Shown here: piece after piece, positions 2,794 to 44,697 of the stretch | How the letters are laid out: every line of letters starts with the position of its first letter | How positions within the stretch are numbered: the first letter of the stretch is position 1 | Source of the DNA: a virus | Taxonomy: Duplodnaviria; Heunggongvirae; Uroviricota; Caudoviricetes | DNA length: 55,939 nt | Direction: 5' to 3' (one strand) | Virus record (IMG/VR): IMGVR_UViG_2698536620_000014 | The notes under the pieces: generated by a model | Told to the model about the DNA's origin: nothing | Seen by the model: only the letters and a program-made list of their open reading frames with translations | Database searches by the model: none | Translations under genes and position numbers: made by a program

Positions 2794-5386
2794 TTGCATA
2801 TTCCTTAGCCCAGCGGGGCAGTGATAACGTCTTAATAGCTGGCCATTCATCGGTATTGAGGCAGTCAGCCAGGGTTCGCAGATTGCGGTGATATTCCAGC
2901 TGACCTGCCAGTTTTGCTTCTTCGCCCATCATGAAAATTTCAACCGGATAACGTCCGCATTCAATAGTTGTGCTGGCAACCAGAAAAACGAAAGTTGGCT
3001 GCACTCCAAACTGTGCTTCATAACCGTCACTGTAGAATGCATCCTGAACGTGATAGCGGTAGTCGTAATAAGCGGTTTTGAATCGTTGAATATCCGCCGT
3101 AGTTTTCACGTCCATGATCCAGTGAAATTCAGGGATAATTTTGTCCGGACGGCACCGACACAAAATTGCTGTTTCAGGATCTTCCCAGTAAATTGATGAT
3201 TCAGCGTGTCCGGCGCTTTCAACAAGCCATTGCCCCAGCGGCAAAGCCATAACGCTCTGATACATGAGTTCAATTTTCCGGCCTTCTTCGGCAGTGATAA
3301 CCGTTTTTCCTGTGCTTGCGCATTCCCTCAGAAACGCTTTCTCTTCTTCTTTTCCGGAGTTTGTCCGGCGGTTAAATTCAGGTGCTACGATAAAGCGGTT
3401 ACTGAATTCTTCCGGCTCAAGTACCCGGCAGTGGAAAGCGGTTCCTAAATCGAGCGTTTTTGTCTTTGTGGTGTCCACGGGGGCATTTTTACGCCACAAA
3501 TACAGTGCCGGAGTATCAGCAATGTCATCGAGCTGAGACTTACTGACACCGGGACCCGCGTGGTAATTCTCATTCGAAATTCCGTAATAAATACCTGGCT
3601 CTATGTCTTCTACGATTACGGGATCTGCGACTTCGCCAGTTTCATCACTGCAATCGCGATGCGGATCGCTGCCAGCATTCTCATTGTGCGGATGTTCAGC
3701 GCCTTCCATTTCCTCCGGATCATTTTCCTTAGCTTCAACCTGACTCTCTTCATCGAATGTTTCCTGGTATGTTGCGTCGCCCATCACCGCACCACAGTCA
3801 GGGCAGTTATCCCCGCCAGTCTGGCCGCAGGCATTGCAGGCTATTTCCGGTTCCTGTTGCACTACTGGCTCAGGTTGATTCATATCCGGGCTGGTTTTTT
3901 CCGTTTCTGGCTGGTTCTGGTACACACAATCGCGAGTCTGGATCCCCTTTACCCATTTCGGATCGTTCGGGTCGCTAATTCCGTCAACAAATTCACCACG
4001 TGATGCAGCAAGCAATTTATCGGCATCGACAGGATTTTTTGATGGAATGTTTTTCCGGGCTTCATGGAGTTCTGCCCGCAGTTCCTGATATTTCGCATCA
4101 ACAGAATTTACCTGTGACTGAGCATCCAGCGGCTGCGTGTCCTGATGATGTTCAGTTGCGTCCGGTTCCATTGTTTCAGCCTCTCCCTGTTCAACTGCCG
4201 TTGTTCCAGATGGTTGCGGTTTTTCTTCATCATCCTGTTTTCCTTCTTCTGTTACTCGCTGCGGCATCGGGGCAGAGGAGCGACCGCAGGCAATATCCAC
4301 GATTTCCGGATCAGGGTTGGCATGATCGGTTTCAGTCAGTACTTTGTTCAGATATTCAGTGACGTGCGCGGGGATGACCTCGATCCCAATTGGTGCTTCT
4401 TTTACGGACGCAACCACGATGGCGCGGGAATAATCCAGCCCGCCAGGCATGGTGATGAATTTGTCGCGGAAAACAGAAAAGGGCGGTTTATTTTCAGCGA
4501 TAATTTCCTCAATGCGTTTAGCGTGTGCCGGATGAAGGTTATAGATGTCCAGATCCATTGAACGGGCCAGTACGCCAGTGGCTACGTCCCGCGCCAGTGA
4601 CGTCAGATCGTGTACGAAACCTTCGCCGCGATCGGTGAGGTTTCCGCCGCCAGCATTAGCACCGGAAGCCGTGCGAGTGATGTGTGAAACACGATTACCC
4701 TTCATCCACTCTTTTGTCAGCAGTCCTCGATCGGTGTAGTCAGCGTTCAGGTATGCTTCGAAAAAAGCAGTTATCAGTCCCAGGTTTGAATTACCAGGAT
4801 TAGGGAAAACTTTGTCAGTGTCACGAACCAGTTTGTGGAGTTCGCGAATTTCCAGCGGGTCGAGCAGGCTGGTTTTGTGGGAAACAGCCAGGGCAGTAAC
4901 AGCCGGTAGTTCTTCAGCCCGAGCAATGTGTAATGCCTGGAGTCCGTCGCGTGAAACGTGCGTTACCGGTTTTTCGCTGCCGTGTTGAGCAAGCCAACGA
5001 ATGGGCAGTTCCTGGCCAGAAATTGGGAGTAGCATATTCTCCTCAATCTCAGGCATGTCTTCGCCGTTGACGTTGGTATTGCCTTGATAGTGAGCGTTGT
5101 CTGGTGCTGCTCCCGGTTTTAGTTCCCATGTCATGGAGTCTTTGCTGAGTTGATAGCGTTCACTCCAGGTAAAATCGATCTCACCTTCAGCGGGCAGGTC
5201 ATTAACGACAGGAAAATTCGTGGCAACAGCTTTAAAATAGCTGCTCAGTTTTTTACCTGACTTAACGATCAGGTAGTCCAGAGTGGCACAGGTCGATTCA
5301 AAATCGTTGCTTGCCCACAGGACGACGTCAGGTTCACCGGATGATTTTTTCGCTTTCCGTAACAGGAAGAGTGGTTTTGTGCTCAT
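2786..5386 (-). CDS. recE: RecE exonuclease VIII, 866 aa
   Basis: 866-aa ORF, same length as K-12 RecE; acidic Cys-rich middle region; operon with recT. Confidence 0.9.
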
Positions 5387-6229: not shown

Positions 6230-6670
6230 AATTATCTCCATTTTTACAAATGAACTTTGTTGATGCGGTGCCTGGTGCCTCCAGGTGACTGCAACCAGTT
6301 AACAATTACAGTCGGCTTTCCCACCCAAACCAATAAGGACTAACATGACTTTTAACTGTGCCACGTGCGCTTAGCCGCATTCACCGCATCACAAAATTCA
6401 CTTTAAAAAGGGCGGACATCAGCCGAACTTCAAGAAAAAAACTGATGCCGCCAGGACTACACACAGCAATGTCGTTATTTACAACCGGAGGCGCACTCCC
6501 ACCATTTAAATTTAACAGACAAGACCGACTCTTTATGGATATCGGAAATGCGCCTTCGTGTTGTGCCCGGTTTTATTTCACCACCTCCGGGCTTCGGTGG
6601 TCTCGGCTATACCCCTACAGCGAGAGCTTGTGTTAACATTTCAATACCCTTACAGTTGAGAGTTATTGAT

Positions 6671-7159
6671 ATGTTGGATGTATTTACTCCATTGTTGAAA
6701 CTTTTTGCTAACGAGCCACTCGAAATACTTATGTATACGATTATCATTTTTGGTCTCACTCTCTGGCTGATACCGAAAGAGTTTACTGTCGCATTCAATG
6801 CTTATACTGAAATACCTTGGCTCTTTCAGATTATCGTTTTTGCCTTTTCTTTCGTGGTCGCCATTTCCTTCTCAAGATTGCGAGCACATATTCAAAAGCA
6901 TTATTCATTACTACCAGAGCAACGAGTATTGCTTCGTTTATCTGAGAAAGAAATCGCTGTATTTAAAGATTTCCTTAAAACAGGAAATCTTATTATCACT
7001 TCTCCTTGCCGTAACCCGGTTATGAAAAAATTAGAACGGAAGGGCATCATTCAACATCAGAGTGATAGCGCAAACTGTTCTTATTATCTCGTCACCGAAA
7101 AATACTCCCATTTTATGAAGTTATTCTGGAACAGCAGGAGTAGACGTTTTAATCGTTAG
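6671..7159 (+). CDS. sieB: SieB superinfection exclusion protein, 162 aa
   Basis: Internal ATG at 6671 (MLDVFTPLLKLFANEPLE...); two hydrophobic helices near the N-terminus. Confidence 0.8.
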   Translation: MLDVFTPLLKLFANEPLEILMYTIIIFGLTLWLIPKEFTVAFNAYTEIPWLFQIIVFAFSFVVAISFSRLRAHIQKHYSLLPEQRVLLRLSEKEIAVFKDFLKTGNLIITSPCRNPVMKKLERKGIIQHQSDSANCSYYLVTEKYSHFMKLFWNSRSRRFNR

Positions 7160-7311
7160 CTTACTGTGTGCTTCTCCAACCATCGGCGCGCACCAGTTTC
7201 GGTTTTAAATGTTTTGCTTTTGGTATACGTCATGGCAGTGAACGTTCCATCCTGGTTGGGGAACACGCCGCACACCAGGGATTCGTTGTTGCCGAGGTCG
7301 ATTTTTTGCAT
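7156..7311 (-). CDS. ydaF: YdaF-like small protein, 51 aa
   Basis: Not in track. Minus-strand ATG 7309-7311 to TAA 7156-7158: MQKIDLGNNESLVCGVFPNQDGTFTAMTYTKSKTFKTETGARRWLEKHTVS; convergent with sieB. Confidence 0.5.
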   Translation of the reverse strand: MQKIDLGNNESLVCGVFPNQDGTFTAMTYTKSKTFKTETGARRWLEKHTVS

Positions 7312-7321
7312 TTTGCGAATC

Positions 7322-7456
7322 TCACATCTTGTTGCTGTGTATAGCGACTTCTGCCTGCCAGAGATCCCAGTCGTTGCTGCGTAAAGCCTGCACAGCCTGG
7401 TTGTAAGTGATACCGCAACAATCCATCAAATACTGAACTACTTCGTAATGCACCAT
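7322..7456 (-). CDS. ydaG: YdaG-like small protein, 44 aa
   Basis: ATG at 7454-7456 preceded by GGGGAGAG; product MVHYEVVQYLMDCCGITYNQAVQALRSNDWDLWQAEVAIHSNKM. Confidence 0.55.
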   Translation of the reverse strand: MVHYEVVQYLMDCCGITYNQAVQALRSNDWDLWQAEVAIHSNKM

Positions 7457-7746
7457 CTTATCTCTCCCCTTAACGCCGGGTGGCGGAACTGAAACCTGCT
7501 GCACTGCAAAATCTGAACCCTGCCGTCATGTTCATACGCCTCGGGCTGGCTACTTAACCCCTGACCACTGCCTGGTAACTCGAAGTATTGCCCTGCGTTC
7601 TGTGGGGCGGGGTGGGTTGGTAGGTATATAATGTACTTTGTGTTCATTGATGTAAAGTACTATAAGTACATTTTGTGTGTAAAAAAATGAGATGGGATAA
7701 AGTGAAGCACAAACCCGGAGGGGGACGCTACCGGATTTATGCTGGT

Positions 7747-8184
7747 TTAAGAGGCTTTTTGTTTTTTCTTTCGTGCTAGCTCTTCGTAAATTGCATTGTA
7801 CTTCTGTTTTTTCTCCTCAAGAGTTTTTAAAAGTTCATCTGTCTCACTGTCAGGGAGCTCGTCCAGAAGGTCAATGATGATTTTTTGTCTTGGATTTAAC
7901 TCCTGATAGAAACGTACCTGTCCACTTTCTTCTGTATCCTCTCCCAAAAGATAGGTTGGTGTTGTTCCAATGAGTGTTGCTAATTCCCTTAATTTCTCTC
8001 GGCGAGGAATTGTTTCGCCATTAAACCATTTGCTAACCGCTTTTGGTGTTAATTTCATTCGACGGGCAATTTCTGCCTGCCTTCCATGTTGTTCATAACC
8101 AGCGTTTTCACAGGCTAGCGCAAGCCTACTGGCGAACTCTTTACGCGCTTTATCTTCATGAACCATAAGTTCAATGATATTCAC
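7747..8184 (-). CDS. racR: RacR prophage repressor (HTH, XRE-like)
   Basis: HTH-like segment GRQAEIARRMKLTPKAVSKWFNGETIP; divergent from ydaS-ydaT. Start uncertain: GTG 8184 or ATG 8166; an in-frame stop lies just upstream. Confidence 0.8.
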   Translation of the reverse strand: MNIIELMVHEDKARKEFASRLALACENAGYEQHGRQAEIARRMKLTPKAVSKWFNGETIPRREKLRELATLIGTTPTYLLGEDTEESGQVRFYQELNPRQKIIIDLLDELPDSETDELLKTLEEKKQKYNAIYEELARKKKQKAS

Positions 8185-11758: not shown

Positions 11759-11896
11759 ACGTTACTAGATCAAAGAGCATTAGTTCATATGTAAATTGAC
11801 ATTTTTCTGGCACAGGGGAGAGCTAGCGTGGTTGTCCGCTTTGTGCCAATAGCGGACATTGCTGGCTCATGGTATGTTAGTTTAAGGAGGCAGGTT

Positions 11897-12919
11897 ATGC
11901 CCTGTATTTCGCTGTGGTATAATAGTTGCGCAATTGATACAAGGGAGCGTTACATCGTGAAAATTGTTTTCGAGGTTAATGGAAAGAAAGTTCCACTAAA
12001 ATCTTTAAAATACATAAGCAAAAAAGATCAACTCGAAGTAATGAAAAACTGGTTCTTTGAAAACTTTGAAGATCCGGCAAATGCTTGTCCGTATGAAAGT
12101 AGAGAAGGTGGCTATGCTTACATATATGGCGGGCCGTATGATGCGAGCGAAGAACTACAATCCATCTTCGGTCAATATGTTAAATCTGAGTATATTGAGG
12201 AATTAGTAGATGAATTACAAACACAATGTTTTGACTGGTCTGGAAACTCAAATAATATAGATGATTGGTACGATGATGATATCTACGACGCTGTAACGTC
12301 TTCCGGTAATCCGTATTTAAAATTCATTGATAATATCGATAAAATAAAAAAACTTGCAAAAGATAAAACTGAACAACAGCAAAAAAACCACTTGCTTAGT
12401 TTGCTCTACACGAATGTTATTACAGCTTTGGAAACGCTTTATGTTGAGCTATTCATTAATTCTATAGAGAAAGATGATGTCTACATAGCCAATTGTATAG
12501 AAAAAGGTAAGACTGAATTTAAAGTAAGCAAAGATATTGCTGCGTTGCCTTTCAAGGGTGAACCCATCGAGAAAATTAGGGGAGAGCTAATCAGGTCAAT
12601 CAAGGAACACTTGATCAGTGCAAGCTGGCATAGCACTAAAAAGGTAATCGACCGCTATGAAGCTACATTCGATATAAAAGTACAAAAAGACTGTCCGATA
12701 GAAGCTATTGAATTGGCAACCCTCAATCGAAATCACTTAGTGCATCGTGGTGGAAAGGATAAAGAAGGGAACCTCGTAGTGATTACAGACCAGGATCTTG
12801 AAACGCTGATTGAAAATGCATCGAACCTGGCAATTATGCTCTACAACAGTTTAAATGTAGCAACGAATAAAACCACCATTTTGCAACCAGATGACAAACC
12901 GTTCATTCATGAATTTTAA
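11897..12919 (+). CDS. Hypothetical protein with C-terminal HEPN-like R-x4-H motif (candidate RNase toxin); AT-rich
   Basis: ATG 11897 with AAGGAGG 6 nt upstream; alternative in-frame GTG 11957 with AAGGGAG. C-terminal ATLNRNHLVHRGG matches the HEPN RNxxxH signature. Coding region visibly AT-rich against GC-richer flanks. Confidence 0.6.
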   Translation: MPCISLWYNSCAIDTRERYIVKIVFEVNGKKVPLKSLKYISKKDQLEVMKNWFFENFEDPANACPYESREGGYAYIYGGPYDASEELQSIFGQYVKSEYIEELVDELQTQCFDWSGNSNNIDDWYDDDIYDAVTSSGNPYLKFIDNIDKIKKLAKDKTEQQQKNHLLSLLYTNVITALETLYVELFINSIEKDDVYIANCIEKGKTEFKVSKDIAALPFKGEPIEKIRGELIRSIKEHLISASWHSTKKVIDRYEATFDIKVQKDCPIEAIELATLNRNHLVHRGGKDKEGNLVVITDQDLETLIENASNLAIMLYNSLNVATNKTTILQPDDKPFIHEF

Positions 12920-12934
12920 TAGCGCAGGTCATAC

Positions 12935-13936
12935 ATGGATATTCGCACACGAAAGACAAAATTTTTAGAGTCGTTAGATTCAACTGAAGTGATACGCAAA
13001 GCAGTAAGTCTCGCTATAGATTGCATTATTGATAATCATAATAGTAATGAAGATACCCCCTTAGTTATTACCAGCTATGATGATCTCTGTAGAATCCAGG
13101 TGCTAAATTATGTACAGGAGTTTTGCGAAGCTGCATTCCCTGATATGGATGAATATTACTTTAGTCCTAACATACTTCGCATCAACGGCAAGACTAGTGA
13201 AGAAGCTTGTATTAACTTAATTAAACTCTTAAGAAGTACAAAAGGCATGCTATTCTGGTCCGATGCCCCATCGTGGTTCGCTAGCCTCCCCGACGGATTA
13301 TTCCATGTTGTTAACATTGATCAAAAAATCGTTACTCGCGGCCTTAATAAGAAAAACTCTAAGCCGACAATAATCAATAAAGATTACAGTGTAGATACAC
13401 TACTATCAGAGCTATTTTTGAATGGCGCACACATGGAGCAACCCAACGTACACAACGTTTCTGAGGGAAACATGAAGTTCTATGATGAATGCCATGCTGG
13501 ATTAATCAGACCAATACCCGCTCCAATAGGCGCGTCATACGATGAAGAGATCACAATTAATTCTCCAGATTGGCAAAAGCTCGCGTGTGTAGCTTTACGC
13601 CGCTATCAGTCGAAGGAATGTCATGACGGAATGCAATGGGATACAACCGATCATGGTTGGACTGATGTAATCGCGTATCCATTCGTCGAAGAAATACAAT
13701 CAATGGATAATAGTGGTTATCGACAATGTTTAGTTGGGCTGGTCACAATAAACAATTCAAATGCAAATTCTCCGTACCTATCTACCGTTTGGATACATCC
13801 ATTTTATCGCAGGAGAGGGTTATTAAGTAAGTTATGGCCAAAATTACAAGAGTTATATGGAAGTAACTTCGAAATTGAGCGACCTAATGAAAATATGAAA
13901 GCATTTCTGAAAAGTGCGAAACACGCAGATTACTAA
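12935..13936 (+). CDS. Hypothetical protein with C-terminal GNAT-like acetyltransferase motif; AT-rich
   Basis: 333-aa ORF 15 nt after the previous gene; C-terminal VWIHPFYRRRGLLSKLWPKL resembles GNAT motif A; N-terminal about 200 aa has no motif I recognise. Confidence 0.6.
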   Translation: MDIRTRKTKFLESLDSTEVIRKAVSLAIDCIIDNHNSNEDTPLVITSYDDLCRIQVLNYVQEFCEAAFPDMDEYYFSPNILRINGKTSEEACINLIKLLRSTKGMLFWSDAPSWFASLPDGLFHVVNIDQKIVTRGLNKKNSKPTIINKDYSVDTLLSELFLNGAHMEQPNVHNVSEGNMKFYDECHAGLIRPIPAPIGASYDEEITINSPDWQKLACVALRRYQSKECHDGMQWDTTDHGWTDVIAYPFVEEIQSMDNSGYRQCLVGLVTINNSNANSPYLSTVWIHPFYRRRGLLSKLWPKLQELYGSNFEIERPNENMKAFLKSAKHADY

Positions 13937-20099: not shown

Positions 20100-20342
20100 N
20101 NNNNNNNNNNNNNNNNNNNNNNNNNNNNNNNNNNNNNNNNNNNNNNNNNNNNNNNNNNNNNNNNNNNNNNNNNNNNNNNNNNNNNNNNNNNNNNNNNNNN
20201 NNNNNNNNNNNNNNNNNNNNNNNNNNNNNNNNNNNNNNNNNNNNNNNNNNNNNNNNNNNNNNNNNNNNNNNNNNNNNNNNNNNNNNNNNNNNNNNNNNNN
20301 NNNNNNNNNNNNNNNNNNNNNNNNNNNNNNNNNNNNNNNNNN
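20100..20342. other. Assembly gap (243 N)
   Basis: Run of N; removes the endolysin 3' end and the Rz/Rz1 5' ends. Confidence 0.99.
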
Positions 20343-20584: not shown

Positions 20585-20721
20585 AATCTTAACTACAATA
20601 TGATTCATTTTGATGATTGTTTCATAAGGAACAGTGAAGTAAGATCTAAGAGGAGTTAAATTTTATACAGTATAATCATAATATTGCAGCAAGGTGGTTA
20701 TAATTGAAAGAATATTTAGAT

Positions 20722-22179
20722 ATGAATACATCTCATGTAAGAGTTGTTACTCATATGTGTGGGTTCCTGGTTTGGCTCTATAGTCTTTCAATGTTGCCAC
20801 CAATGGTTGTAGCATTGTTTTATAAAGAAAAAAGCCTGTTCGTTTTCTTTATAACTTTCGTTATATTTTTTTGCATTGGTGGCGGAGCGTGGTATACAAC
20901 TAAGAAATCTGGCATTCAATTACGTACCCGTGATGGGTTTATTATAATTGTAATGTTTTGGATTTTGTTTTCTGTTATTAGTGCATTCCCTTTATGGATT
21001 GACTCAGAACTTAATTTAACGTTCATTGATGCTCTGTTTGAAGGGGTTTCTGGAATAACAACAACAGGAGCAACTGTAATTGATGATGTTAGTTCATTAC
21101 CTCGGGCATATTTGTACTATCGGTCACAGTTAAATTTTATAGGTGGTTTAGGAGTTATTGTTCTGGCGGTTGCAGTATTGCCATTATTGGGTATTGGTGG
21201 TGCAAAGCTTTATCAGTCAGAAATGCCGGGGCCATTTAAGGATGACAAACTCACTCCCCGCCTGGCCGATACGTCACGGACACTGTGGATAACTTATTCT
21301 TTATTAGGTATTGCTTGTATTGTCTGTTATAGACTTGCAGGAATGCCTTTGTTTGATGCTATTTGTCACGGGATTTCCACAGTTTCGCTTGGTGGTTTCT
21401 CAACTCATAGCGAGAGTATCGGATATTTTAATAACTATTTGGTTGAGCTGGTGGCTGGTTCTTTTTCCCTGCTATCGGCTTTCAACTTCACTCTTTGGTA
21501 TATTGTTATTAGCAGAAAAACGATAAAACCTTTAATCAGAGATATTGAACTTCGTTTCTTTCTGTTAATAGCCTTAGGGGTGATCATTGTTACCTCTTTC
21601 CAGGTCTGGCATATAGGTATGTATGACTTGCATGGAAGTTTTATTCATTCGTTTTTTCTTGCCAGCTCCATGCTCACTGATAATGGTTTAGCTACGCAGG
21701 ATTATGCAAACTGGCCCACGCACACGATAGTGTTTTTGCTGTTGTCAAGTTTCTTTGGGGGATGTATAGGTTCAACCTGTGGTGGAATTAAGTCACTTCG
21801 ATTTCTTATACTTTTCAAACAAAGCAAACACGAGATAAATCAGCTTTCTCATCCCAGAGCGTTGTTGAGTGTAAATGTAGGAGGGAAGATAGTTACAGAT
21901 CGTGTAATGAGGTCTGTATGGAGTTTCTTTTTTCTTTATACTCTCTTCACGGTGTTTTTTATACTGGTGTTAAATGGTATGGGATATGATTTTCTTACAT
22001 CATTTGCAACAGTGGCTGCATGTATTAATAATATGGGATTAGGTTTTGGGGCTACTGCATCGTCATTCGGAGTGCTTAATGACATTGCAAAATATTTAAT
22101 GTGCATAGCTATGATTCTTGGTCGCCTTGAAATTTATCCTGTTATTATATTGTTTTCAGGTTTTTTTTGGCGCTCCTAA
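20722..22179 (+). CDS. trkG: TrkG potassium uptake protein (TrkH/TrkG family), 485 aa
   Basis: ATG 20722 (MNTSHVRVVTHMCGF...); polytopic membrane protein; same length as the Rac-encoded TrkG of K-12; AT-rich. Confidence 0.9.
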   Translation: MNTSHVRVVTHMCGFLVWLYSLSMLPPMVVALFYKEKSLFVFFITFVIFFCIGGGAWYTTKKSGIQLRTRDGFIIIVMFWILFSVISAFPLWIDSELNLTFIDALFEGVSGITTTGATVIDDVSSLPRAYLYYRSQLNFIGGLGVIVLAVAVLPLLGIGGAKLYQSEMPGPFKDDKLTPRLADTSRTLWITYSLLGIACIVCYRLAGMPLFDAICHGISTVSLGGFSTHSESIGYFNNYLVELVAGSFSLLSAFNFTLWYIVISRKTIKPLIRDIELRFFLLIALGVIIVTSFQVWHIGMYDLHGSFIHSFFLASSMLTDNGLATQDYANWPTHTIVFLLLSSFFGGCIGSTCGGIKSLRFLILFKQSKHEINQLSHPRALLSVNVGGKIVTDRVMRSVWSFFFLYTLFTVFFILVLNGMGYDFLTSFATVAACINNMGLGFGATASSFGVLNDIAKYLMCIAMILGRLEIYPVIILFSGFFWRS

Positions 22180-22316
22180 TATATGGCTGATTTATAATTG
22201 TGAGTTTAATATTATGTTGACTCACTCATTGATCCAATACCTAACTTTACCAGCAACACCTCCGCCCCCAGTAGCACTGGCTGCTGGGGTGCGTTTTATT
22301 CATAAAGCAAGGCTGT

Positions 22317-23105
22317 ATGAGCGAGAAATTAAAGATAGTCTATCGCCCATTACAAGAATTGTCACCGTATGCGCACAACGCCAGGACGCACAGTACTGAG
22401 CAGGTGGCACAACTGGTAGAAAGTATTAAGCAATTCGGCTGGACTAATCCGGTGCTGATTGACGAAAAGGGCGAAATTATTGCGGGTCACGGTCGTGTTA
22501 TGGCGGCTGAAATGCTCAAAATGGATTCTGTTCCGGTCATTGTTCTGTCTGGCCTGACGGATGAGCAGAAAAAGGCGTACCGCCTGGCAGATAATCGCCT
22601 GCCGATGAATGCTGGCTGGGATGAAGATCTGTTGCGGATGGAGCTGTCGGACCTAATCAATGCTGATTTTGATGTCTCCCTGACAGGCTTCATCCCGGCA
22701 GAAATTGATGAACTGTTGACGGATGTTTTGCCCGGTACAGGAAATGAGGAGGAGCCGTATACGACGAAAATTGATACGCCTGTTTATGAGCCGTCAGGCG
22801 GTAAACCGGATATCAGTGAACTGTACGACGATACGAAAACTCAGGAGCTGATCAGCCGGATACGTTCGGCGTCCCTTGATCCTGATATTGAGAAATTCCT
22901 CCTGTGTGCAGCAGAACGTCACACGGTGTTTAATTTCAGCAGAATTGCGGACTATTACGCTCATGCCCCCGCTGAAATTCAGTGCCTTTTCGAGGAGTCG
23001 GCGCTGGTGATCATTGATTATCAGCAGGCTATTGAAAATGGATTTGTCCGAATGACGCAGCGCATGGTGGAGATCATGCATGGCGGGGAGGAGGAATATG
23101 CGTGA
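22317..23105 (+). CDS. ParB-like nuclease domain protein, 262 aa (full-length counterpart of the short K-12 ynaK)
   Basis: N-terminal LKIVYRPLQELSPYAHNARTHS...IIAGHGRVMAA is a ParB/Srx-type motif. Confidence 0.75.
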   Translation: MSEKLKIVYRPLQELSPYAHNARTHSTEQVAQLVESIKQFGWTNPVLIDEKGEIIAGHGRVMAAEMLKMDSVPVIVLSGLTDEQKKAYRLADNRLPMNAGWDEDLLRMELSDLINADFDVSLTGFIPAEIDELLTDVLPGTGNEEEPYTTKIDTPVYEPSGGKPDISELYDDTKTQELISRIRSASLDPDIEKFLLCAAERHTVFNFSRIADYYAHAPAEIQCLFEESALVIIDYQQAIENGFVRMTQRMVEIMHGGEEEYA

Positions 23106-24030
23106 TGATTTTTGCGCCTTTATTCTGACTCACGGGCGACCGGACAAAGTTCTGACTTACCGGACGTTGCGTCGTGCTGGCTATACCGGGAAAATTTTTA
23201 TCGTTGTTGATGATGAAGATAAGACACGGCATCAGTACATGGCTGAATTTGGTGAACAGGTGCTGGTATTTTCCAAAGCCGATATTGCTAGTCGTTTTGA
23301 CGAAGCCGATAATTTTAGTGACCGCCGCTCAATTTTTTACGCCCGTAATGCCTGTTTCGACCAGGCAAAACTGGTCGGGTGTAAATACTTCATTCAGCTC
23401 GATGATGATTATCACGAGTTCCAGTTTCGGGTGGATCGCAACTATGACCAGGCCTATTTCCCGATAAGGAAACTGGATGAGATCCTTTCTGAAATGCTTG
23501 CGTACTACGAATCAATACCTGCTCTTTCCATCGCTATGTCGCAGGGCGGGGATTTTCTTGGTGACAATGGCGGCCATGCTTCGTGGGTGAAACGCAAGGC
23601 AATGAACAGCTTTATCTGTTCGGTTGATCGACCGTTCTCATTCATGGGGCGCATTAACGAGGATGTGAATACGTACACGAATCTCGGTCGCTGTGGTGAA
23701 TTGTTTATGACGATCGGTGCTGTCCAGTTAGGGCAGAAACAGACGCAGAAAAACAGCGGCGGAATGACCGAGCTGTATCTGGATTCCGGAACCTACGTTA
23801 AAAGTTTTTACTCCGTCATGTATGCGCCGTCGTGCGTAAAAATCTCACTTATGGGTGCCAGTCATAAACGCATTCACCATCAGGTCACCTGGAACAACGC
23901 TGCAGTAAAAATCCTTCACGAAAAATACAGGAAGAAGACACCCTGCATATCAATGGGGGTGACAAATGATTCCGTATTCGAAAGTCGAGTCTCTGGCAGC
24001 GTGCCGGATGACTGCACAACAAATCGCTGA
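23098..24030 (+). CDS. YdaY-like protein, unknown function, 310 aa
   Basis: ATG 23098 after GGAGGAGG; acidic DDD-containing segments (FIVVDDEDK, IQLDDDYHEF); paired with the ParB-like gene upstream of terminase. Confidence 0.6.
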   Translation: MRDDFCAFILTHGRPDKVLTYRTLRRAGYTGKIFIVVDDEDKTRHQYMAEFGEQVLVFSKADIASRFDEADNFSDRRSIFYARNACFDQAKLVGCKYFIQLDDDYHEFQFRVDRNYDQAYFPIRKLDEILSEMLAYYESIPALSIAMSQGGDFLGDNGGHASWVKRKAMNSFICSVDRPFSFMGRINEDVNTYTNLGRCGELFMTIGAVQLGQKQTQKNSGGMTELYLDSGTYVKSFYSVMYAPSCVKISLMGASHKRIHHQVTWNNAAVKILHEKYRKKTPCISMGVTNDSVFESRVSGSVPDDCTTNR

Positions 24031-24217
24031 CGTTCTGGATGTTGATCTGAACCGACTGAAAGAAAATCGGGAAGCAATGACAGATTTTTATGCGGCCATC
24101 CGTAAGGGCAGAGCGAAAGGTGAAGCCGAGTTACGAGCGGCATTGTTTAAGCTTGCCAGAAAAGGGGATGCCTTTGCTCTGCGCGAACTACTCAGGGTGG
24201 ATAAAAATCAGGACTAA
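23966..24217 (+). CDS. Hypothetical small helical protein, 83 aa
   Basis: ATG 23966 after GGGGGTG; overlaps the 3' end of the previous gene in another frame; directly precedes terS. Confidence 0.4.
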   Translation: MIPYSKVESLAACRMTAQQIADVLDVDLNRLKENREAMTDFYAAIRKGRAKGEAELRAALFKLARKGDAFALRELLRVDKNQD

Positions 24218-24220
24218 CTG

Positions 24221-25315
24221 ATGAGCAGACCGGACTGGGGGGCGTTGCAGCAGGAGTATATTGCTGAATACACCCGCTCCGGTATATCTCCGGTGGCATG
24301 GTGTGAAGCAAGGGGACTGAATTACGCAACAGCCCGTCGTTACATCAAAAAAACTCCGAAAAATGCGCAGACAGAAATGTGCAAAACTGCGCAAAAAAGT
24401 GCGCAGAAAAAATCTGCGCAGACTGCACAAAAGCGGAACGAAAAATCTCAGGAAAAAAAGCCAGTATTCGATGCGGGCCTGAATGAGGGCGACGCGGAGG
24501 AATTTTCGTTCTGTCCCGATGAATTCGGCATTTCTGACCAGCAGGCTAAGTTTGCGATGCTTGTTGCTCAGGGTAAAAAGCCGACAGAGGCGTACCGACT
24601 AGCCGGTTATGAGGGGCAAGGTGCGACAGCTAACAGCAACGCCAGTCGTATGCTTAGAAATGCCAGGGTTTTTCGCGCTATCAGCTACTTCCGCAATCAG
24701 TACCAGAAACGCTATACCGCAGACCTGGATTTACTAGTGAGTCAGTTGATGGCTATTGTCCTGGCCGACCCCAATCAGCTTGCACAATTTCGCCGTGTTA
24801 ACTGCCGTTATTGCTGGGGCGAGAATCATCTCTACCAGTGGCGCGATATAGCAGAATTCGACAAGGCAGCGGCGCAGGCTTCCAGAGATGGCAAACCCGA
24901 ACCGGAATATGGAGGCCTCGGCTTTGTTGATAACGCCATACCCAATCCGGACTGCCCGAAGTGCTGCGGTGAGGGAACGGGACAGCTTTATATGGCTGAT
25001 ACCACTCTGCTTGATGGGGATGCGCGGCAATTATATGCAGGGGCAAAATTCGGAAAATTCGGCGTTGAGATCCTGCTGGAGGATAAGGCTGCCGCCCGGC
25101 GTGAATTGTTGCGTTTGTTTTCTGCTGGCGGGGCTTTATGTGCAGATAAGCGGCTACGGGAACTGGAAATTGAACGGCGCAGAATGGAAAACCAGAAGCT
25201 GCGCAAAGAGATCGAAACGGTGGAAGATAATGAACATCCCCAGCCTGTGGCGATCAATATTAATGTGGTTGATGCCAGAGTAAGGAGTGATGAAGATGAT
25301 CTCTCCGACGCTTAA
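24221..25315 (+). CDS. Terminase small subunit, 364 aa
   Basis: N-terminal HTH-like segment, basic/Gln-rich linker, Cys cluster; immediately upstream of and overlapping the large terminase. Confidence 0.65.
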   Translation: MSRPDWGALQQEYIAEYTRSGISPVAWCEARGLNYATARRYIKKTPKNAQTEMCKTAQKSAQKKSAQTAQKRNEKSQEKKPVFDAGLNEGDAEEFSFCPDEFGISDQQAKFAMLVAQGKKPTEAYRLAGYEGQGATANSNASRMLRNARVFRAISYFRNQYQKRYTADLDLLVSQLMAIVLADPNQLAQFRRVNCRYCWGENHLYQWRDIAEFDKAAAQASRDGKPEPEYGGLGFVDNAIPNPDCPKCCGEGTGQLYMADTTLLDGDARQLYAGAKFGKFGVEILLEDKAAARRELLRLFSAGGALCADKRLRELEIERRRMENQKLRKEIETVEDNEHPQPVAININVVDARVRSDEDDLSDA

Positions 25316-26597
25316 TGTGCCTCAGGCGCGATTTCTTTCAATGCCCCATAAATTTAAAGCCTATATTGCTGGTTTTGGCTCGGGCAAAACATGGGTTGGG
25401 TGTGGCGGCATATGCAAGGGGATTTGGGAGCATCCAGGTATAAATCAGGGATATTTTGCGCCAACGTATCCCCAAATTCGCGATATTTTTTACCCTACAG
25501 TGGAAGAAGTTGCTGCTGACTGGGGATTGAACGTAAAAATTAATGAGGGAAATAAAGAGGTTCACTTTTATTACGGACGCCAGTATCGGGGAACCACTAT
25601 CTGCAGATCGATGGAGAAGCCACAAACGATCGTCGGTTTCAAAATTGGTAATGCGTTGGTGGATGAACTGGACATTTTGCCGAAGGAAAAAGCCAGAACG
25701 GCGTGGCGCAAGATAATTGCACGTATGCGTTATAAGATTGATGGACTTCGCAACGGTATTGACGTTACAACCACGCCGGAAGGATTCAAATTTGTCTACG
25801 AGCAGTTTGTTAAAGCCGTGCGTGAAAAAACAGAGCTGGCCTCACTGTATGGTCTGGTGCAGGCATCTACTTTCGATAATGAAAAGAACCTGCCAGCAGA
25901 TTACATTCCTTCGCTTCTTGAATCATACCCTCCAGAGCTGATTAAAGCCTATCTTCGAGGACAGTTTACTAACCTGACAAGTGGTACTGTTTACCATCAG
26001 TTTGACCGGAAACTGAATAATTGCGAAGAAGTGGAGCAGCCAGGGGAGCCGATTTATATTGGGATGGATTTTAACGTTGGAAAGATGGCGGGAATCGTCC
26101 ATGTGCTGCGTTTGGGGCTTCCATGTGCGGTAACTGAAATCATCAATGCCTACGATACGCCGGATATGATCCGCATCATTAAAGAACGCTTCTGGCTGTA
26201 TGATGGGAATGATTACCGGAAAGTGAGGGAAATTTATATTTATCCAGATGCTTCCGGGGATTCCAGAAAATCAAGTAACGCAAGTACGACGGATATAGCC
26301 CAGCTTAAGCAGGCTGGTTTTAACGTTGTGGTGAACAGCTCGAACCCGCCAGTAAAAGATCGCGTTAACTCAATGAATGCAATGTTCTGCAATGCCAATG
26401 GTGAGCGTCGCTATAAAGTTAATGTGAAGCGTTGCCCGTTATATGCCGAATCTCTGGAGCAACAGGTCTGGGATGAGAAGGGGGAGCCTGATAAAAAATC
26501 TGGCAATGATCACCCGAATGATGCCGGAGGTTATTTCATCGTTAAGCAATTCCCTATTGTCAAACCGACCGGAAGAGTCACATCACTTCGGATTTAA
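25287..26597 (+). CDS. Terminase large subunit, 436 aa
   Basis: Walker A-like GFGSGKT near the N-terminus; first gene of the head module. Confidence 0.85.
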   Translation: MMKMISPTLNVPQARFLSMPHKFKAYIAGFGSGKTWVGCGGICKGIWEHPGINQGYFAPTYPQIRDIFYPTVEEVAADWGLNVKINEGNKEVHFYYGRQYRGTTICRSMEKPQTIVGFKIGNALVDELDILPKEKARTAWRKIIARMRYKIDGLRNGIDVTTTPEGFKFVYEQFVKAVREKTELASLYGLVQASTFDNEKNLPADYIPSLLESYPPELIKAYLRGQFTNLTSGTVYHQFDRKLNNCEEVEQPGEPIYIGMDFNVGKMAGIVHVLRLGLPCAVTEIINAYDTPDMIRIIKERFWLYDGNDYRKVREIYIYPDASGDSRKSSNASTTDIAQLKQAGFNVVVNSSNPPVKDRVNSMNAMFCNANGERRYKVNVKRCPLYAESLEQQVWDEKGEPDKKSGNDHPNDAGGYFIVKQFPIVKPTGRVTSLRI

Positions 26598-34017: not shown

Positions 34018-34479
34018 ATGAGGTTATGGATGTTTATTCTTAATCAGAAAATTATCATTGGTGGAGAACGCTGGTTTACGCCAATGAAGGACTTAAAACC
34101 TGTAGACGGGTTAAAACTGTTGGTGGCAAGCAGCGATAACGATCAGTATCGCTCCCGTAATGCATTAATCCGTCGCCACATTGAGAAAATGGATGCCAGT
34201 TTGCACGTCGGAACGAAGGAGTTTGATATTTCAAAGGTTTCCGAGGTGGATTCTGTTGATGATTTACTCATTGATAATGCCGCTCGTTATCTGCTGAAAG
34301 ACTGGAAAGGGGTTGGTGAACTGGTTAATGGTGTTGAGGTTGCACTGGAATATACGGCAGAACGAGGGATCGCGCTGCTTAAGCAGAATCCAGAGTTGTA
34401 CTGGCAGATCCTTGCAGAAGCAGCCAGCATCGCCCAGGGTAAAGAGCAGCAGAAGCAGGATACGATAAAAAAGCCATAG
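34018..34479 (+). CDS. Tail assembly chaperone (gpG-like), 153 aa
   Basis: Ends just after slippery A_AAA_AAG (34467-34473); immediately upstream of the tape measure gene. Confidence 0.65.
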   Translation: MRLWMFILNQKIIIGGERWFTPMKDLKPVDGLKLLVASSDNDQYRSRNALIRRHIEKMDASLHVGTKEFDISKVSEVDSVDDLLIDNAARYLLKDWKGVGELVNGVEVALEYTAERGIALLKQNPELYWQILAEAASIAQGKEQQKQDTIKKP

Positions 34480-44053: not shown

Positions 44054-44697
44054 ATGCGTAAACTTTATGCCGCCATTTTGTCCGCAGCCATTTGTCTGGC
44101 CGTATCCGGTGCGCCTGCATGGGCGTCTGAACATCAGTCCACGCTGAGCGCGGGGTATCTTCATNNNNNNNNNNNNNNNNNNNNNNNNNNNNNNNNNNNN
44201 NNNNNNNNNNNNNNNNNNNNNNNNNNNNNNNNNNNNNNNNNNNNNNNNNNNNNNNNNNNNNNNNNNNNNNNNNNNNNNNNNNNNNNNNNNNNNNNNNNNN
44301 NTTCAGCTATGCAGGAGACAAGAATCGCCAGCTGACCCGTTACAGCGATACCCGCTGGTATGAAGATTCCGTGCGTAACCGCTGGTTCAGCGTGATGGCG
44401 GGGCCGTCTGTGCGCGTGAATGAATGGTTCAGCGCGTATGCGATGGCGGGTGTGGCTTACAGCCGTGTGTCGACTTTTTCCGGGGATTATATCCGCGTAA
44501 CTGACAATAAGGGGAAAACGCACGATGTGCTGACCGGAAGTGATGACGGTCGCCACAGCAACACGTCTCTGGCGTGGGGAGCTGGCGTGCAGTTTAACCC
44601 GACCGAATCCGTGGCCATTGATATTGCTTATGAAGGCTCCGGCAGTGGCGACTGGCGCACTGACGGTTTCATCGTGGGTGTCGGTTATAAATTCTGA
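44054..44697 (+). CDS. lom: Lom/Ail-family outer membrane protein; middle of gene replaced by assembly gap
   Basis: Signal peptide MRKLYAAILSAAICLAVSGAPAWA before the gap; after it, beta-barrel C-terminus ...SGSGDWRTDGFIVGVGYKF closely matching lambda Lom. Confidence 0.7.
44165..44301. other. Assembly gap (137 N) inside lom
   Basis: Run of N. Confidence 0.99.

Follow-up and report, generated by a model that had tools for sequence, protein, structure and literature searches.

A TAGT-family glycosyltransferase and a ParB/Srx-type partner form a conserved two-gene module beside phage terminase genes

The viral record IMGVR_UViG_2698536620_000014 of IMG/VR, whose full 55,939 nucleotides (nt) are the window analyzed here, is a Rac-like lambdoid prophage of Escherichia coli, and ahead of its terminase genes it carries an overlapping pair of genes for proteins of 262 and 310 aa. 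We identify the 310-aa product as a TAGT-family GT-A glycosyltransferase (hereafter TAGT) with an intact catalytic R...DXD...ED signature and the 262-aa product as its dedicated partner, built from a ParB/Srx N-domain, a linker motif, a helical C-domain and an acidic tail. Together they form a strictly conserved two-gene module. Our favored reading, to which we give a probability of about one half, is that the pair encodes an accessory glycosylation module of two subunits, expressed late, which modifies phage DNA before it is packaged or while it is being packaged. The pair and its parts lie as follows.

22317..23105, + strand: partner gene (full-length ynaK), 262 aa
22317..22724, + strand: ParB/Srx N-domain of the partner, residues 1–136 (from Pfam, PHROG, Foldseek and alignments)
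22758..22793, + strand: linker motif Y148-T-T-K-I-D-T-P-V-Y157-E-P, consensus Y-[ST]-x-x-[IVT]-x-x-P-x-Y-x-P
22812..23102, + strand: helical C-domain and acidic tail, FLxxAAxRHxVFxxxxIAxYY...SALVIID..AIxxG
23098..24030, + strand: TAGT-family glycosyltransferase gene, 310 aa; a longer 316-aa reading starts at 23080
23401..23409, + strand: DXD motif D102-D103-D104, invariant in 34 homologs
23656..23664, + strand: N187-E188-D189; N187 and D189 invariant and E188 in at least 90% of 34 homologs
23743..23952, + strand: basic C-terminal module of TAGT, residues 216–285, isoelectric point (pI) 9.7; GGMT, GTYVKSFYS, HH and W conserved
23953..24030, + strand: C-terminal extension of TAGT, about 25 aa, not in the other aligned homologs; overlaps the next open reading frame (ORF)

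A glycosyltransferase and its dedicated partner

A first-pass annotation, made from the letters alone, had described intact ORFs of 262 and 310 aa upstream of the terminase, and both ORFs hold, as do their coordinates and sizes. For the second gene, the ATG at 23098 is a better start than 23080, because the Shine-Dalgarno sequence GGAGGAGGAA precedes it and it overlaps the partner stop (ATGCGTGA). The 310-aa protein, which that annotation regarded as a partner of unknown family with acidic DDD motifs, matches the Pfam TAGT family (PF20691) at 118.8 bits (cut-off 27.5; 4e-34), with residues 14–228 of the 316-aa ORF aligned to model positions 4–205 of 205, and its DDD is the DXD motif of GT-A enzymes. 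It also matches phrog_842 (8e-104), is named 'GREB1-related protein' in RefSeq and tests positive for the GT-A fold. Its best matches in BFVD are viral TAGT models, including the beta-glucosyl-HMC-alpha-glucosyltransferase of a T4-like phage, and its structural neighbors include mannosylglycerate and glucosyl-3-phosphoglycerate synthases, which are GT-A enzymes with small-molecule acceptors. The profile and structure searches proposed in the annotation thus led to an enzyme family rather than to a structural or packaging family, the outcome it had named as contrary.

We examined TAGT motif conservation in 34 homologs, down to 58% identity. Besides the acidic motifs listed above, R14, GGMT221-224 and H260-H261 are invariant, and the DDD is kept even in a Porphyromonas phage TAGT of 27% identity. 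R14, the DDD and E188-D189 together make up the R...DDD...ED pattern of the GT-A enzymes that act on DNA 5-hydroxymethylcytosine (5hmC, hmC) and of JGT; a common R...DDD...ED[YF] site has been described for the 5mYOX-associated GT-A enzymes and JGT (bioRxiv 10.1101/2023.12.21.572611). That the catalytic residues are invariant across phyla argues for enzymatic activity of the glycosyltransferase. The TAGT proteins are basic (median pI 8.8), and residues 216–285 of the window protein, which lie mostly past the Pfam match and are poorly predicted in the monomer model, are a candidate surface for binding the partner or DNA. Compared with the sequences of solved structures, the TAGT profile gave only marginal, unrelated matches and a profile of the partner's C-terminal half, to which no Pfam family corresponds, found no relative; we take the marginal matches of the TAGT and partner C-domain profiles (gp54, a SusD-like protein and FadA) to be chance.

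The first protein had been called ParB/Srx-type, which applies to its N-terminal half: Pfam ParB_N scores 29.3 bits against a cut-off of 26.3, phrog_620 matches at 1.7e-90, and Foldseek aligns about 137 residues with Noc, ParB-CDP, PadC and KorB (E 7e-7 for Noc, ParB-CDP and PadC). N21, G57-H-G-R60 and D92-N93 are invariant in enterobacterial homologs, and the N-domain thereby carries a predicted nucleotide-binding motif of the GxxR type, whose Gly is present in at least 90% and whose Arg in at least 70% of 34 phyla-wide partners; the motif is lost in the Porphyromonas phage. Residues 10–144 resemble the N-terminus of the PADLOC MTase_II model (1.5e-38), and in a tblastn search the nearest unpaired phage relatives proved to be fusions of ParB-N to an adenine methyltransferase (MTase), at no more than 57% identity. 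A Pfam scan of the partner found no MTase domain; only its N-terminal 135–144 residues match the MTase model.

We rejected the identity as a partition ParB of the ParABS type. The structural similarity ends at about residue 140, the complete helix-turn-helix (HTH) domain that binds parS is absent, and NCBIfam parB_part scores 38 bits, below its cut-off of 58. No ParA gene is annotated near the pair in the RefSeq record of E. coli strain EC2 (NZ_CP058571.1), which is 100% identical to the window over the 2.1 kb around the pair. The C-terminal half of the partner is a conserved domain unrelated to the ParB C-terminal region. With these ParABS features missing, the database name 'partition protein' is unjustified.

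The linker motif is kept in 34 phylum-diverse partners and in the standalone partner of a Vibrio phage described below, and is degenerate in the Porphyromonas phage; the segment is predicted to be disordered, with a predicted local distance difference test score (pLDDT) below 50 over residues 137–155. The C-domain family comprises about 1200 clusters at 50% identity. Among its best 150 representatives, the domain forms the C-terminus of a 250–300-aa protein in nearly all cases and partner::TAGT fusion proteins are absent; of the longer members, seven of the eight scanned contain ParB_N, and they carry only N-terminal extensions before it. With a net charge of about -24 and a pI of 4.5, the partner is very acidic, as is the family (median pI 4.6 over 34 diverse members). 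Because the ParB-N domains of the MTase fusions are likewise acidic, we regard acidity as a trait of this ParB-N subtype and no evidence against a role with a DNA-modifying enzyme.

Scanning one genome per species for a sequence pattern yielded 42 loci, in Enterobacterales, Bacteroidota, Clostridia, Veillonella, Acidobacteriota, Chlorobi, Saccharibacteria, Opitutia and others; 41 of them extend upstream and were evaluable. A partner ORF lies directly 5' of the TAGT ORF on the same strand in all 41, which span Proteobacteria, Bacteroidota, Firmicutes, Acidobacteriota, Saccharibacteria and others, and the longest partner and TAGT ORFs overlap in 39. The same order, partner directly before TAGT, recurs in 80 of 80 IMG/VR loci. 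Cultured viruses with the pair are the Lactobacillus phages phi jlb1 and c5, the haloarchaeal virus HHTV-2 and the Porphyromonas phage, which is paired although its TAGT is only 27% identical. In phage c5 the two genes are ORF1 and ORF2, directly after the cos site. Downstream of the pair come a small ORF, a terminase large subunit (TerL) gene of one of at least three families (Terminase_6, Terminase_3 and T7-like) and then the portal gene.

A different setting is found in the Vibrio myovirus pv27 (191 kb, T4-like), whose TAGT is 44% identical and whose pair stands among replication genes, between those for an exonuclease and a helicase. Upstream of TAGT it has a 139-aa 'hypothetical protein' (4459–4878 of the examined stretch) that consists of the linker motif and C-domain only (1e-55 to the partner profile). 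As this partner has no ParB domain, we consider the TAGT-specific partner to be the linker plus C-domain of about 110 aa, with ParB-N an add-on. In some lineages pair members are split or truncated, namely the ParB-like gene in Shigella flexneri (7102–8008 of the examined stretch) and TAGT in a Bacteroides metagenome-assembled genome (7983–8836) and in the L. delbrueckii phages phiLdb, Ld17 and LL-Ku, indicating that the module decays there.

The target of the module

Several observations connect the pair with DNA. It opens the packaging operon in at least three terminase families, which fits a modification that shields the packaged DNA, and its ParB-N is shared with phage DNA adenine MTases that occupy the same slot before the terminase: in Streptococcus phage Javan506 and a metagenomic myovirus, ParB-N::MTase fusions stand directly before the terminase genes. 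The recurrence of ParB-like genes beside phage terminase genes, which the first-pass annotation had claimed, is thus seen both across the surveyed loci and in these fusions. A ParB-MTase with DNA-nicking activity is encoded near the terminase small subunit (TerS) gene of a B. cereus prophage (PMC3592412), and ParBc domains are frequent fusion partners or neighbors of phage DNA-modifying enzymes, with "precise function unknown" (PMC12783734). In the MTase fusions, the homologous acidic ParB/Srx N-domain serves a fused MTase rather than a separate glycosyltransferase, and the linker motif and C-domain of the window partner are missing. DpdA-DpdB offers a further likeness: DpdA cannot exchange DNA bases without the ParB-like ATPase DpdB, an NTPase of ParB fold that is a protein of its own and ends in a helical domain (PMC10164549). 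That system differs in its TGT-like transglycosylase effector, its DGQQR-motif ParB subfamily and its cellular restriction-modification context, and the resemblance is a functional analogy only.

The closest characterized relatives of TAGT also act on DNA, on acceptors that the phages studied here do not appear to make. The beta-glucosyl-HMC-alpha-glucosyltransferase of T2/T6, their second DNA glucosyltransferase, belongs to PF20691 (PMC13216743). Like the window TAGT it has the GT-A fold and DXD motif, and it is the source of the PHROG name; unlike the window TAGT, it has no described ParB or C-domain partner, and it was too distant to be recovered by tblastn. It adds a second glucose to alpha-glucosyl-hmC and needs a dCMP hydroxymethylase and an alpha-glucosyltransferase in the same genome, both of which are absent from the EC2 prophage annotation and the phage c5 genome. 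Since there is no source of alpha-glucosyl-hmC, PHROG's product name misdescribes this clade. The GT-A enzymes associated with TET/5mYOX and JGT share the R...DDD...ED pattern and GT-A fold with the window TAGT and act post-replicatively on DNA (bioRxiv 10.1101/2023.12.21.572611); they use 5hmC or 5-hydroxymethyluracil (5hmU, hmU) supplied by a neighboring C5-MTase plus TET, or by JBP, whereas the window clade has no TET. With no TET/JBP or hydroxymethylpyrimidine source found, the window TAGT lacks the TET context that gave the family its name.

In the favored reading, the acidic partner would bind the basic C-terminal module of TAGT, and the ParB/Srx domain, probably in a nucleotide-dependent manner as with DpdB for DpdA, would bring TAGT to DNA or activate it there. 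TAGT would then transfer a sugar from a nucleotide-sugar donor (UDP-glucose by analogy) onto DNA, so that phage DNA modified after replication, before or during packaging, may be protected against restriction in the next host. Because no source of hmC or hmU was found, the acceptor would be a canonical base, the backbone or a DNA end, which would be new chemistry for the TAGT family. More specifically, we consider it possible, though on the doubtful side, that the pair is a TET-independent system that puts sugar directly on unmodified DNA (an exocyclic amine, the backbone or an end), guided or activated by the ParB/Srx-plus-C-domain subunit.

Several points weigh against DNA as the target. Neither TET/JBP, a thymidylate-synthase-like hydroxymethylase nor a DNA MTase is in the RefSeq annotation of the near-identical EC2 prophage; none of the three is a conserved neighbor in the 42 loci, where a C5-MTase-like gene occurs in five and an N6/N4 MTase-helicase gene in seven; and the complete 31.8-kb genome of phage c5 holds none of them. 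In the first 50 kb of pv27 a thymidylate synthase gene adjoins the dihydrofolate reductase gene, and it probably encodes an ordinary ThyA. With these source enzymes absent, the usual hydroxyl acceptor of TAGT (hmC, hmU or a sugar on them) is not phage-supplied. To our knowledge, all characterized TAGT-type enzymes use a hydroxyl acceptor, and in unmodified DNA only the ends have one. The partner is strongly acidic (about -24), ParB-N included, which is unusual for a DNA binder, and it has no complete HTH DNA-binding domain like that of chromosomal ParB. The monomer structure models are moderate (mean pLDDT 74 and 68), and our literature search gave no biochemical or nucleoside-level study of phages that carry the pair. 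Finally, a member of the TAGT family glycosylates a protein: the glycosyltransferase domain of human GREB1 O-GlcNAcylates the estrogen receptor ERalpha (PMC7968844).

This GREB1 precedent keeps alive the main rival to a DNA target, protein O-glycosylation, as it shows that the family can take protein acceptors; GREB1 itself has a related glycosyltransferase domain but is a 1949-aa eukaryotic multidomain protein. The acceptor could be the Tyr or a Ser/Thr of the partner's linker, in the manner of glycogenin or GREB1, or a phage or host protein for which the partner acts as adaptor, and the chemistry fits, a hydroxyl being the acceptor. We nevertheless judge protein O-glycosylation rather unlikely. 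The first Y-[ST] of the linker motif is not clearly kept in the Porphyromonas phage, where the pair is still conserved; ParB-N is specifically common to DNA MTases in the same genomic slot; DNA is the target of most characterized TAGT-type enzymes; and we see no apparent reason for a phage to glycosylate a ParB-like protein.

An improbable alternative is a small-molecule target, with the ParB/Srx domain binding a nucleotide and TAGT glycosylating a derived metabolite or signal, for example to weaken a host defense or to shift precursor pools. Speaking for it are the GxxR motif, in a domain class known for nucleotide binding or NTPase activity, the enzymes with small-molecule acceptors among the structural neighbors noted above, and the lack of an evident DNA acceptor. 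Yet the pair heads the late packaging operon rather than standing among early anti-defense genes, PADLOC gave no defense or anti-defense match for either protein beyond the MTase N-terminus, no metabolic gene is associated with the pair, and the standalone pv27 partner has no ParB domain.

The first-pass annotation had suggested that the pair could act in packaging or in DNA modification; the second is plausible and is the one we favor, while an essential packaging role is disfavored. As a packaging accessory, the ParB-like protein would be a nuclease or DNA binder that aids the terminase at pac or cos, like the HNH protein of HK97-like phages, with TAGT as a structural cofactor. The pair constantly adjoins terminase genes of at least three families, in c5 directly after cos, and ParB-MTase fusions can nick DNA (PMC3592412). 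However, the pair is missing from sibling prophages whose TerS and TerL are homologous: in E. coli ETEC1716 the lysis genes lead straight to the small ORF and TerS, and in E. coli P393-F10 enterotoxin genes fill the slot. The pair is therefore accessory, and we disfavor it as essential for packaging. Moreover, pv27 has its pair among replication genes and its partner lacks ParB, and the invariance of the catalytic residues across phyla points to an enzymatic activity, so that we hold the packaging-accessory role to be very improbable.

Least probable is glycosylation of the cell envelope, TarP- or Gtr-like, for lysogenic conversion or superinfection exclusion: the annotated genes include no flippase and no membrane-protein partner, the pair belongs to a late operon that stays silent in lysogens, an envelope target would give no reason for the strict pairing with a ParB/Srx protein, and phage c5, a Cequinquevirus and presumably virulent, also carries the pair.

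Parts of this picture are already known. "Solitary" TAGTs have been noticed, with a solitary TAGT homolog in 288 of 753 phage genomes encoding glycosyltransferases (PMC13216743), and ParB-like and terminase genes are listed, unexplained, as GT-A neighbors in a study in which about 65% of GT-A contigs had no base-modification neighbor (bioRxiv 10.1101/2023.12.21.572611). Our literature search, beyond whose reach lay the 2013 paper that defined TAGT and possibly noted the linkage, found no functional account of the ParB-TAGT pair. What we add is that a known enzyme family can occur independently of TET, in a distinct arrangement of two components, with a dedicated partner whose domain had not been described: one large clade of "solitary" TAGTs turns out always to be paired with a dedicated partner. 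Its carriers are small phages of bacteria and archaea, temperate as well as presumably virulent ones, and prophages in about one-sixth of sequenced E. coli genomes, and its presence in an E. coli Rac-like prophage makes it genetically tractable. If the target is DNA, this would be a new route of DNA glycosylation that bears on restriction evasion, type IV restriction, DNA-glycosylase defenses and sequencing artifacts, and a TET-independent sugar on unmodified DNA would add to phage DNA hypermodification a kind not described before. If it is a protein, the pair would correspond, in bacteria and archaeal viruses, to GREB1-type O-glycosylation. With either target, the misleading names "partition protein", "beta-glucosyl-HMC-alpha-glucosyltransferase" and "YdaY-like" are corrected.

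The locus and its deletion in K-12

Each protein of the pair aligns end to end with its common E. coli form at 98% identity; the clusters to which these forms belong contain 1812 and 2693 sequences. At least 80% of the 2.1-kb region is present in 867 of 5426 complete E. coli genomes. Relative to the common 263-aa form, the window's 262-aa protein has four substitutions and is one Glu shorter in the acidic tail. In EC2, RefSeq flags ynaK (the equivalent of window 22317–22574) as a C-terminally truncated pseudogene; as the 262-aa ORF is intact, the flag looks like an annotation artifact.

Comparison with K-12 bore out half of the view that both genes survive there as short fragments. K-12 ynaK is an 87-aa piece of the first gene, whereas the second gene has no K-12 fragment, and K-12 matches only the first 371 nt of the 2.1-kb query. 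The K-12 Rac prophage has a deletion of about 11.56 kb that joined window position 22570 to about 34128 at a short GCAG-type microhomology and took two-thirds of the ParB-like gene together with the glycosyltransferase, terminase, portal, head and tail-tube genes, which explains why no remnant of the 310-aa gene is left. The name "YdaY-like" given to the 310-aa protein does not stand, since BLASTP against K-12 YdaY gives no alignment at E values up to 100. We rejected YdaY homology for this protein because YdaY matches another ORF: of the 119 aa of K-12 YdaY, 116 are 100% identical to the C-terminus of window ORF 34018–34479, which sits between the tail tube and tape measure genes, and the K-12 'ydaY' ORF arises through the deletion from the 3' part of that ORF.

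The window runs in the order recET, immunity, replication, lysis, the trkG moron (20704–22179) and the partner/TAGT pair. The features that flank the pair are the following.

22266..22299, + strand: terminator-like hairpin with a 10-bp stem and T-rich tail (consensus scan only)
23966..24217, + strand: small ORF, 83 aa; the RefSeq start at 24008 gives 69 aa
24221..25315, + strand: terminase small subunit TerS (profile searches, RefSeq)
25287..26597, + strand: terminase large subunit TerL (profile searches, RefSeq); the portal gene is next

The hairpin lies 3' of the trkG moron and marks the upstream limit of the pair cassette. Scanning 22100–24400 for repeats, parS-like palindromes and promoters gave nothing above chance except this hairpin. 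The potassium transporter gene trkG, inserted as a moron, separates the lysis cassette from the late operon and has a terminator-like hairpin of its own; in sibling prophages its position is vacant or taken by enterotoxin genes.

At its 3' end the TAGT gene runs 65 nt into the 83-aa ORF; the overlap shrinks to 23 nt if the RefSeq start at 24008 is used. The small ORF resembles part of a small terminase subunit (phrog_309, 8.3e-23), its type occurs at only seven of the 42 loci, and it is kept in a sibling prophage that has no pair; it is one of the packaging genes and lies outside the conserved pair. PADLOC and NCBIfam scans gave no match for it or for TAGT. In the ETEC1716 prophage, the gene at the portal position after TerL (6253–7689 of the examined stretch) is labeled 'anti-CBASS protein Acb1 family protein' in RefSeq and its P393-F10 equivalent 'DUF1073'; the Acb1 label is probably a naming quirk for a portal-like protein.

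Runs of N at 20100–20342 (243), 44165–44301 (137) and 46544 (1) mask parts of the lysis and tail-fiber regions, the masked lysis part corresponding to rrrD/rzpD in the EC2 record, and ORFs listed across these runs are artifacts of the masked sequence. Elsewhere in the window, the adjacent ORFs 11828–12919 (363 aa) and 12935–13936 (333 aa) lie in a low-GC stretch (0.37–0.40). They have no PADLOC or NCBIfam match, and RefSeq lists their EC2 counterparts as hypothetical, one of them frameshifted; the two may be a moron or defense cargo.

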